This document shows, piece after piece, positions 4,829-6,286 of a DNA stretch of 27,323 bases; position 1 is the first letter of the stretch; each line of letters begins with the position of its first letter. This DNA comes from an uncultured Gammaproteobacteria bacterium (GTDB lineage: Bacteria > Pseudomonadota > Gammaproteobacteria > HTCC5015), in the NCBI GenBank assembly GCA_964479305.1, contig CAYZLE010000001.1, positions 1 to 27,323 on the forward strand, given 5' to 3'. The translations under genes were made by a program, and so were the position numbers. The notes under the pieces were generated by a model, which ran no database searches, was not told the DNA's origin, and saw only the letters and a list, made by a program, of their open reading frames with translations.

Positions 4829-5158
4829 ATGTCTCTACCCGCCTGTCCAAAATGTAACTCCGAATATACTTACGAAGATTCACCTCTATACATTTGCCCA
4901 GAGTGTGGACATGAGTGGCCACAAGATTCTGCTGAAGAAGATACTGTTGTAATCAAAGATTCAAACGGTAACACGCTTAATGATGGTGACAGCGTAACGG
5001 TAATTAAAGACCTTAAAATTAAAGGTTCATCTTCAGTAGTTAAAGTGGGCACCAAGGTTAAAAATATTCGCCTTGTTGATGGAGACCATGACATCGACTG
5101 CAAAATTGATGGCATTGGCGCCATGAAGCTCAAATCACAATTCGTTAAAAAAATCTAA
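4829..5158 (+). CDS. yjdM: PhnA/YjdM zinc-ribbon domain protein
   Basis: CPKC...CPEC.HEW zinc ribbon, then [20 protein letters not shown]...[11 protein letters not shown]...[20 protein letters not shown]. Confidence 0.9.
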
Positions 5159-5164
5159 AATAGC

Positions 5165-5192
5165 TTGCTTTTCATTTTTATTGGCCTATAGT
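5165..5192 (+). promoter_or_regulatory. Candidate sigma70 promoter for the leader/EamA unit
   Basis: TTGCTT (5165-5170), 16 bp, TATAGT (5187-5192), then a GC-only 7-mer CGGGCCC and the ATG at 5200. Pattern match only. Confidence 0.4.
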
Positions 5193-5199
5193 CGGGCCC

Positions 5200-5286
5200 A
5201 TGAAATTTTATACATTAAAACCTGTCGCACGAATTAATACAGCTTGGCTGATGGCCAAGAGGTTCTGCTGTGCGTACGTGACTTAA
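5200..5286 (+). CDS. Putative 28-aa leader peptide MKFYTLKPVARINTAWLMAKRFCCAYVT
   Basis: Translated by hand (below the ORF-track cutoff). Tandem Cys codons TGC TGT at 5266-5271. It lies between a candidate promoter and a terminator that precedes the EamA gene. Confidence 0.5.
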   Translation: MKFYTLKPVARINTAWLMAKRFCCAYVT

Positions 5287-5313
5287 TGTTAAATTAATTA
5301 AGACCCATTTTTT

Positions 5314-5347
5314 AGCCGCAGCTTCACAAGAACTGCGGCTTTTTTTT
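5314..5347 (+). terminator. Rho-independent terminator / putative attenuator
   Basis: AGCCGCAG-c-TTC / ACAA loop / GAA-CTGCGGCT stem followed by a T8 run (5340-5347), about 40 nt before the EamA ATG. Confidence 0.85.
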
Positions 5348-5386
5348 CGCCGCGATTTTGTAAGCTACTTTTATACAGGATATATT

Positions 5387-6286
5387 ATGAAAATCGCTTT
5401 AGCTTATATTAGCGTCATAATAATTTGGAGCACGACTCCTTTAGGAATAACATTCAGCATTAGTGATGGAGATATTTTATTTCCATTAATTGTGCGTATG
5501 ATTATTGGTTTATTACTTAGCTTAATTTTTTTGGCTTTTGTTAATCAACGCATCACTTTTAGTAAAGATGCTATCGCAACTTATGCTGCTTCAGCTTTAG
5601 GTGTGTGTGGCGCTATGCTTGTTACGTATTGGTCGGCGCAGTATGTTCCTTCTGGTCTGATTTCCGTGCTTTACGGTTTATCGCCTATTCTTGCGGGAAT
5701 ATATGCTGTTCCAATATTGAACGAATCTTTTTTATCTAAGCGTAAATTAATAGGCATTACTTTAGCGCTTGTTGGCTTGCTCATTATTTTTATTGATGAC
5801 CTTATAATTAACGACGAAAGTAGCGGCCTTAAAGGTGTTCTTGGAATAATTGTAGCTGTTAATTTATACGCCATGAGTACAGTACTAATTAAGCGTATAA
5901 ATAGCCAGGTATCTGCTGTATCAATTAATGCAGGAGCCTTACTGTTATCTATGCCTATTTTTGCTTTAGCATTTTTTAGTAGCAACAGTAGTATTCCTGT
6001 TGCGCCATCAAACACCTCCGTTTACGCCATTATATATCTGGGTATTTTTGGTTCATTTTTTGGTTTTGTTGCTTATTTTTATATTTTAAAAAACTTGTCA
6101 GCAACTAGCGTAATGCTAATACCTTTAATAACACCGGTATTCGCTTTAATTTTAGGTAATATTATTAATAATGAAGCCTTAACTTTTCATATTGTTTTAG
6201 GGGCATTCTTTGTTTTAAGTGGTTTGCTGGTTTATCAAGTTAAAAATTCTTATATAAATAATATTAGTAACAAGCTTAATTTTTAA
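5387..6286 (+). CDS. DMT/EamA-family transporter (two EamA repeats, about 10 TM)
   Basis: AY..VI.IWSTTPL, Y.P.SGLISVLYGLSP, YLGIFGS..GF..YF..L, LITPV.AL.LG motifs. RBS CAGGA at 5376-5380. Confidence 0.9.
   Translation: MKIALAYISVIIIWSTTPLGITFSISDGDILFPLIVRMIIGLLLSLIFLAFVNQRITFSKDAIATYAASALGVCGAMLVTYWSAQYVPSGLISVLYGLSPILAGIYAVPILNESFLSKRKLIGITLALVGLLIIFIDDLIINDESSGLKGVLGIIVAVNLYAMSTVLIKRINSQVSAVSINAGALLLSMPIFALAFFSSNSSIPVAPSNTSVYAIIYLGIFGSFFGFVAYFYILKNLSATSVMLIPLITPVFALILGNIINNEALTFHIVLGAFFVLSGLLVYQVKNSYINNISNKLNF

Follow-up and report, generated by a model that had tools for sequence, protein, structure and literature searches.

A probable ribosome-mediated transcription attenuator, with a candidate tryptophan control codon, upstream of an EamA-family transporter gene in an uncultured gammaproteobacterium

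What is the role of the DNA that separates phnA from the gene of an EamA/DMT-family transporter in an uncultured gammaproteobacterium? The source is a metagenome-assembled genome of 1.63 Mb, 83% complete, and the stretch of 27,323 nucleotides that was analysed is referred to here as the window. Direct reading of the sequence places phnA/YjdM at positions 4829-5158 and the spacer between this gene and the transporter gene at 5159-5386, a length of 228 bp. The original prediction assigned to this spacer a leader-peptide attenuator that senses cysteine and works with inverse logic, shortage of the amino acid keeping a cysteine exporter off. The attenuator layout has stood up to analysis; cysteine as the signal and the inverse logic have not. 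The spacer is a real, conserved cis-regulatory element of known attenuator design, and we regard it as highly probable that it is a ribosome-mediated transcription attenuator for the transporter gene. The principal features, including the open reading frame (ORF) of the leader, are as follows.

5165-5170, forward strand: the -35 box, TTGCTT, of the leader's own promoter; identical in a second genome of the same genus (G001), and TTGACA or TTGACT in most other loci.
5187-5192, forward strand: the -10 box, TATAGT, followed by a 7-nt GC-rich discriminator, CGGGCCC (5193-5199); assigned by direct reading, from G001 and by comparison of multiple loci.
5200-5286, forward strand: the leader ORF, 28 codons and a stop codon (5284-5286), probably leaderless; the ATG frame is open in all 49 aligned leaders.
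5223-5231, forward strand: region 1, the anti-antiterminator strand, which pairs with 5269-5278 of region 2 in the minimum free energy (MFE) structure, which extends the pairing slightly beyond 5275.
5243-5259, forward strand: the apical hairpin of the structure formed by regions 1 and 2, 7 bp (5243-5249 with 5253-5259), -9.3 kcal/mol.
5245-5247, forward strand: the in-frame Trp codon (W16), present once and situated at the top of the 1:2 hairpin; the candidate control codon.
5267-5275, forward strand: region 2, the 5' strand of the antiterminator, which pairs with region 1 or with the terminator 5' arm at 5315-5322.
5314-5347, forward strand: the intrinsic terminator, comprising region 3 (5314-5321), region 4 (5333-5340) and a U8 tract (5340-5347), -16.4 kcal/mol.
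5387-6286, forward strand: the EamA/DMT-family transporter gene, presumed to be the regulated gene; Pfam EamA (PF00892) matches in two stretches, E 5e-32.

Is this arrangement found elsewhere? A scan of a genome collection, with one genome per species, gave at least 588 stretches related to the transporter. The best 80 of these together with the loci of the host's own family made up a survey set of 87 loci. A strict pattern, which demands a promoter with its -10 box 5-9 nt ahead of an ATG, an ORF no shorter than 20 codons and a terminator, is present in 51 of the 87. Inspection by eye adds about 14, giving a total of some 65 that includes four loci from Colwelliaceae/Thalassotalea, and conservation in that many related loci shows that the arrangement is not due to chance. 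The unit occurs in Gamma-, Zeta- and Betaproteobacteria and in Magnetococcales, always on the same strand and directly 5' of the EamA gene, whatever gene lies upstream. Carriers include Marichromatium, Thiorhodococcus, Sedimenticola, Thiohalophilus, Methylococcales and Oleiphilus, as well as Mariprofundus ferrooxydans PV-1, other Zetaproteobacteria, Betaproteobacteria and Magnetococcales. It is missing from the Shewanella loci of the survey and from a few more.

Closer to the host, eight of the 11 genomes of its family have an ortholog of the transporter. The order phnA, spacer, EamA is kept in G001, complete with promoter boxes, ORF, hairpin and terminator. Orthologs of EamA with 36-49% identity occur in seven further genera of the family, where they follow unrelated genes but still have the unit: the -10 box of a TTGACA-type promoter stands 6-8 nt ahead of the ATG, the ORF has 22-36 codons and a terminator comes shortly before the transporter gene. 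Since the unit precedes EamA orthologs where phnA is absent, the idea that the hairpin simply terminates the phnA operon was rejected. Some loci depart from the usual layout. In L089 the terminator lies 270 nt 5' of the transporter start, and an insertion between leader and gene is possible; in L016 and L035 it is approximately 90-107 nt upstream and the short ORF, the ATG of which overlaps the TATAAT box, is devoid of Trp.

The promoter, a feature that the original prediction did not mention, is of the sigma-70 type, with 16 nt between the -35 and -10 boxes in the window and 15-19 nt across the other loci. In the 51 loci of strict pattern the -10 box ends 5-9 nt before the leader ATG, and from this spacing transcription is predicted to start at or beside A5200. 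The leader ORF is probably leaderless, with its AUG at the 5' end of the RNA, as deduced from the promoter spacing in the sequence. Four Colwelliaceae/Thalassotalea loci (L026, L031, L071 and L078) are organised differently. Here the promoter is about 35 nt 5' of the ATG, so that the leader has a 5' untranslated region of some 35 nt and is not leaderless. They retain the ORF, the Trp codon and the antiterminator; region 2 is an exact copy of the terminator 3' arm and the stop codon follows directly. The distance from the end of the terminator to the start of the transporter gene ranges from 15 to 87 nt (median approximately 35) in the strict-pattern loci and is 39 nt in the window, which leaves no space for both a second promoter and a Shine-Dalgarno sequence. 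The stretch 5358-5386 resembles a promoter and was considered for the transporter gene but rejected, as the end of its -10 box is 1 nt from the transporter ATG and it could not yield a messenger RNA with a Shine-Dalgarno sequence.

The case for a switch depends on mutually exclusive pairings, and here the evidence is strongest for the antiterminator. The distances of the terminator from the phnA stop (155 nt) and from the EamA ATG (39 nt) are close to those proposed initially; a simple terminator scan had missed it because its loop is above the limit of that scan. Region 2, near the end of the ORF, mimics the 3' arm of the terminator, usually with one bulged base, and so can pair with the 5' arm. 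In the best duplex of the ORF end with the terminator 5' arm, 5267-5272 and 5274-5275 pair with 5315-5322 and C5273 is bulged, at -11.1 kcal/mol. At the core of this duplex is the complementarity first noted between 5267-5272 and 5317-5322, a pairing that is conserved and co-varies. In the set of 49 aligned leaders the 2:3 duplex has a mean of -13.1 kcal/mol when each region 2 is matched with its own terminator arm and -10.2 kcal/mol with the arms of others; in 5000 permutations the own value is never reached. The ten columns of the 2:3 helix in the MAFFT alignment are 68% paired, falling to 20-35% when slid by 1-3 columns. Examples paired by hand are CUGUG-C-GCC with GGCCACAG, CCGCG-U-GCC with GGCCGCGG and CCCGUG-C-GCCG with CGGCCACGGG. 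Covariation and conservation together support a leader-ORF attenuator with competing hairpins.

RNAalifold applied to the whole-leader alignment recovers the terminator alone, with 10 pairs of which six show compensatory changes. This is explained by poor alignment of the 5' halves, and individual folds and duplex permutations were used instead. The spacer folds better than its dinucleotide shuffles (z -3.5, none of 200 as good), and the leaders up to the terminator fold better than mononucleotide shuffles, with a mean z of -1.8. In the folds of single relatives region 1 often reads GCACAC, GCGCAC or GCACGC and region 2 GUGUGC, GUGCGC or GCGUGC, the two forming a long imperfect hairpin. The 1:2 duplex has weaker support than the 2:3 duplex, 27 of 5000 permutations matching its own value. 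The 7-bp apical hairpin, predicted at the outset, is retained in G001 with one exchange of U-A to C-G in a hand alignment. The MFE structure of 5200-5313 contains one further helix.

5204-5218, forward strand: the 5' strand of an outer helix, P0, which pairs with 5283-5295, around and just past the stop codon.

Long-range pairings akin to P0, which join the first 5-20 nt of the leader RNA to the spacer past the stop codon, appear in the MFE folds of many relatives, for example L005, L021, L088 and L090. Formed beside the start AUG, P0 could hide the leaderless start once the whole leader has been transcribed.

The stem of the terminator is less telling. Gene-end terminators in the host's family share its AAAAAGCCGC...GCGGCUUUUUU design (G000:C89:70-152, L100, L104 and L105), so the conserved stem reflects a general habit of these genomes and is not specific to the switch. 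A covariance model of the 3' module returned the EamA leader as top match in the ortholog-bearing genomes, the other matches being ordinary gene-end terminators. The 12 family genomes hold no second copy of the unit, which is single where it occurs, and there is therefore no regulon to disclose the signal. Rfam has no match at gathering score in the window and only chance-level matches, E of about 0.7 or more, over 5100-5450; nothing relevant was found in seven related loci.

Does the leader ORF behave as a coding sequence? In all 49 leaders the ATG frame ends 24-37 nt before the terminator, compared with 4 and 11 of the 49 for the other two frames. ORF length across the loci is 22-43 codons. 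Upstream of region 2 the ORF frame encodes 3 Glu (19 and 19 in the other two frames), 15 Gly (61 and 61) and 66 Lys (22 and 20). Asp, Gln and Tyr are also depleted, and Val, Ile and Met also enriched. The other frames are drawn from identical nucleotides, hence this frame-specific make-up amounts to a signature of coding. Conservation does not extend to the peptide itself; most differences between the members of close pairs of leaders are nonsynonymous, distributed over all codon positions, and searches of Pfam and NCBIfam with the 28-residue peptide gave no family. Arg21, encoded by AGG at 5260-5262 in the window, is not a codon conserved among relatives. Apart from the start codon, the sole conserved codon of the leader is one in-frame Trp.

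Some smaller features of the leader ORF were noted. In 17 of the 49 leaders codon 7, placed exactly 18 nt from the ATG (5218-5220 in the window), encodes Lys (AAA), and in others Lys occurs at codons 8-9; the codon-7 Lys often precedes Pro or Ala and then Val. Just 3' of region 2 there is a conserved YUGAUGUAG/A string (for example in L023, L043, L060 and L087; alignment columns 55-66) that provides stops in two frames, the ORF ending at UGA or at UAG/UAA according to frame. A purine-rich, GGAG-like stretch is often found between region 2 and this string.

Which signal might the leader read? An in-frame UGG upstream of region 2 is found in 48 of the 49 leaders, with 52 such codons in total and mostly one in each, as against 19 and 4 leaders for the other frames; it is also seen in the additional loci read by eye. 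Close pairs of leaders, most of whose other differences are nonsynonymous, retain the codon. It lies in the 5' arm of about 20 leaders and the 3' arm of about 28, with no fixed place in the fold, which means that structure is not what preserves it. Between the codon and the region-2 core there are 10-36 nt (median 18), in no leader fewer than 10, so a ribosome decoding the UGG would leave region 2 uncovered. In a fold model of the window, masking 5230-5258 as by a ribosome at the UGG, with the RNA ending at 5324, gives an MFE structure that includes the 2:3 helix. With no ribosome, or with the ribosome at the stop codon, the model adopts the terminator state. That the Trp codon is the control codon and that a stall there turns the transporter on is a serious candidate, which we hold at somewhat less than an even chance.

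From these observations we infer the start site, translation of the leader, the Trp signal and the direction of control as follows. Transcription would begin at A5200 from the leader's own promoter and the ORF would be translated from its leaderless AUG. When no ribosome is present, region 1 (5223-5231) would bind region 2 (5267-5275), the terminator would form and transcription would stop 39 nt short of the transporter gene. A ribosome that reaches the stop codon (5284-5286) would mask region 2, with termination likewise. If held within the first two thirds of the ORF, a ribosome would split the 1:2 pairing and leave region 2 free to bind the emerging terminator 5' arm, allowing RNA polymerase to read through. 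The likeliest stall site would be the conserved Trp codon at 5245-5247. The transporter would then be expressed in response to a shortage of charged tRNA-Trp or, in a looser reading, to slowed translation. We judge this account as a whole, with attenuator, leaderless ORF, switching between 1:2 and 2:3, a stall at the Trp codon and expression when charged tRNA-Trp is short, slightly better than even.

Several points weigh against this account. Classical attenuators bear runs or tandems of the control codon, whereas here there is one Trp per leader and no other codon is consistently repeated. One lineage (L014, genome G005) has no Trp codon. The basic, hydrophobic and acid-poor peptide suggests a role for the nascent chain and would fit an arrest mechanism. 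The start at A5200 is a prediction from promoter spacing, and a search for transcript or ribosome data found only DNA runs that contain the window and, for the Mariprofundus locus, one metatranscriptome that reaches just a part of the coding region of a relative. The permutation and pairing tests are inflated by the relatedness of the sequences, with the proviso that their results are mutually consistent. Genes for trpB, trpA and trpE were all found in the host genome, which means that a need for Trp uptake is not obvious.

Upstream of trpE itself, on contig C112 of the host, a 15-codon ORF ending ..NSWQGWRF, with two Trp codons (L115:1298-1345), is situated about 80 nt 5' of the gene. It falls between a promoter-like site and trpE and is a candidate for a classical trp leader peptide; a clear U-tract terminator was not seen after it.

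How does cysteine sensing, the signal first proposed, compare? The sequence features on which it was built are all present: the 228-bp spacer, the 28-codon ORF at 5200-5286 encoding the given peptide, the AGG at 5260-5262 and the following pair of codons.

5266-5271, forward strand: tandem Cys codons, TGC (5266-5268) and TGT (5269-5271), inside region 2; not conserved.

According to that proposal a ribosome stalled on Cys-Cys hides the antiterminator strand and keeps expression off, while plentiful Cys turns on an exporter of cysteine or O-acetylserine. The two codons do lie within region 2, and Cys-rich stretches recur at the same place in a few relatives (L009, L053 and L074). Leaderless polycysteine ORFs are cysteine sensors in mycobacteria (bioRxiv 10.1101/834739). 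However, tandem Cys is limited to the window and a few other leaders. In G001 there is only one Cys at this place, and Cys is absent from several leaders (e.g. L040 and L088). The region-2 motif occupies frames 0, 1 and 2 in 15, 17 and 17 leaders, and such equal use identifies it as an RNA motif and not a codon motif. Cys codons number 67 in the ORF frame and 135 and 63 in the others, and the UGYGYGCC string by itself yields Cys in most frames. Sister leaders exchange UGC and CGC, that is Cys and Arg, with the pairing intact (L023/L043 and L056/L068). Plentiful Cys would not free region 2, since in the window fold model a ribosome at the stop codon still covers it. The transporter, likened to E. 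coli EamA, is not an ortholog of that exporter. Sensing of cysteine in this way therefore appears very improbable. Where terminators have GCCRCRG stems, the RNA motif alone produces Cys codons nearby, which should not be mistaken for cysteine sensors.

Two other explanations keep the switch and change what it reports. The leader could encode a nascent-peptide arrest sensor, comparable to SpeFL and the leaders of antibiotic-resistance genes, in which a basic, hydrophobic peptide with a single Trp stalls the ribosome on a small molecule, either the substrate of the transporter or an inhibitor of translation, and favours the antiterminator. Most leaders have exactly one Trp (52 in 48) and basic residues are common 1-5 places before it. 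The depletion of acidic residues, Gly and Gln and the enrichment of Lys, Val, Ile and Met are confined to the ORF frame, and substrate-induced control suits an exporter better than control by starvation. Against this, the peptide varies freely among close relatives, mostly by nonsynonymous changes, and Lys7, Trp and the stop codon keep no fixed spacing, Trp-to-stop being about 8-16 codons. Moreover the geometry requires the ribosome at or before the Trp codon, placing Trp at the peptidyl-transferase centre and not at the tunnel constriction as in TnaC and SecM. We consider arrest of this kind unlikely, though it merits attention. Less likely again, the switch might be a general gauge of translation, reporting ribosome loading or speed on a leaderless leader, whether through initiation capacity, any hungry codon or stress, with no specific amino acid. 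A leaderless AUG with a GC-rich discriminator would suit such a gauge; in the model a stall anywhere from about codon 5 to the Trp codon gives the on state, and there is one copy per genome with no regulon. What it leaves unexplained is the in-frame Trp in 48 of 49 leaders, at a permitted distance from region 2.

The remaining alternatives dispense with the translated leader or with the switch. A riboswitch or a protein-bound leader RNA, the ORF being fortuitous, would be in keeping with the extended nested fold of outer helix, 1:2 helix and apical hairpin, but Rfam gives no match even at permissive thresholds and the 5' half has no conserved unpaired nucleotides. Such an RNA would not call for an ATG frame that stays open in every leader and stops 24-37 nt short of the terminator, for a Trp codon in that frame or for a make-up specific to it; we give this explanation little credence. 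Least credible of all is that the spacer holds no cis-acting switch and is instead an independent gene for a small RNA or small protein, or simply carries the terminator of the phnA operon. With its own promoter and a strong terminator an RNA of approximately 148 nt would accumulate, and released attenuator RNAs can act in trans, rnTrpL being an example (PMC6614838). Yet the unit is always directly 5' of the EamA gene and on the same strand, whatever lies upstream, and the space for another promoter is too small. Region 2 and the terminator arm co-vary, the peptide lacks conservation, and there are no further copies in the 12 family genomes.

The transporter gene has its own Shine-Dalgarno sequence downstream of the terminator.

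5377-5380, forward strand: Shine-Dalgarno sequence AGGA of the transporter gene, by direct reading, 6 nt before the ATG at 5387.

The protein remains an orphan. Pfam identifies the EamA domain only, and no sequence-level orthology to a characterised exporter such as E. coli EamA/YdeD was found. NCBIfam has no equivalog for it; the best scores are 78 bits for 2A78, 56 for YedA and 29 for YddG, far below the respective cut-offs of 230, 270 and 300. Neighbouring genes offer no functional clue, as the downstream genes vary among loci, with an MltF-like gene in 7 of 42.

Comparison with known systems places the element more precisely. The reference is provided by E. coli trpL and the his, phe, thr, leu and ilv attenuators. 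Like trpL, the window leader has its own promoter, a short ORF, the 1:2, 2:3 and 3:4 helices and an intrinsic terminator just before the regulated gene, with a Trp codon sited so that a stalled ribosome leaves region 2 free. Unlike trpL, it is probably leaderless and devoid of a Shine-Dalgarno sequence, and the ORF passes through region 2 to stop beyond it. Its Trp codon stands alone where the classical leaders have a tandem or run, and its target gene encodes a DMT transporter where theirs belong to biosynthetic operons. The two share no sequence similarity and the window leader has no Rfam match.

TnaC has a fixed W-D-P spacing, stalls at its stop codon and blocks Rho. The leaders studied here resemble TnaC and SecM in having a short leader peptide with a single critical Trp and control of downstream transcription. 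They differ from TnaC in a variable distance from Trp to stop (about 8-16 codons), depletion of Asp and Glu, a C-terminus that is not conserved and a terminator that is intrinsic. The leaderless polycysteine ORFs of mycobacteria have conserved runs of Cys codons, unmask a ribosome-binding site and head cysteine-metabolism loci (Canestrari et al., bioRxiv 10.1101/834739). The window leader is a probably leaderless, putatively sensory ORF in first-cistron position, where the position of the ribosome would likewise set downstream expression. Its Cys codons, in contrast, are not conserved, control is by a transcription terminator and the target is a transporter. In Bacillus subtilis the translation of ycbK, a putative efflux gene, is repressed by Trp-activated TRAP (Yakhnin et al. 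2006, cited in PMC3971595; PMC13170310). If the Trp reading is right, a possible functional parallel would be a putative efflux or transporter gene that is on at low tryptophan. The means differ, as ycbK is controlled by an RNA-bound protein that makes the ribosome-binding site inaccessible. YcbK is itself a putative EamA-family protein.

What does the element mean for the organisms that carry it? Searches of the full-text literature gave no account of an attenuator or leader peptide that precedes EamA/DMT genes. Leaderless translation is considered rare in Proteobacteria, and the present unit adds a family of probably leaderless leader-peptide attenuators in that group. It also provides a handle on the regulation of an orphan transporter subfamily in hosts that include iron oxidisers, purple sulfur bacteria, methanotrophs and marine heterotrophs. 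If Trp is indeed the control codon, this would give the transporter a physiological context and would mean that a single control codon suffices. More tentatively, and we rate it doubtful at present, the single-Trp leaderless attenuator may mark a Trp-linked DMT transporter across Gamma-, Zeta- and Betaproteobacteria, convergent with the TRAP control of ycbK. Such a transporter would perhaps serve in the uptake of Trp or a precursor, or in the export of something harmful when Trp is scarce.

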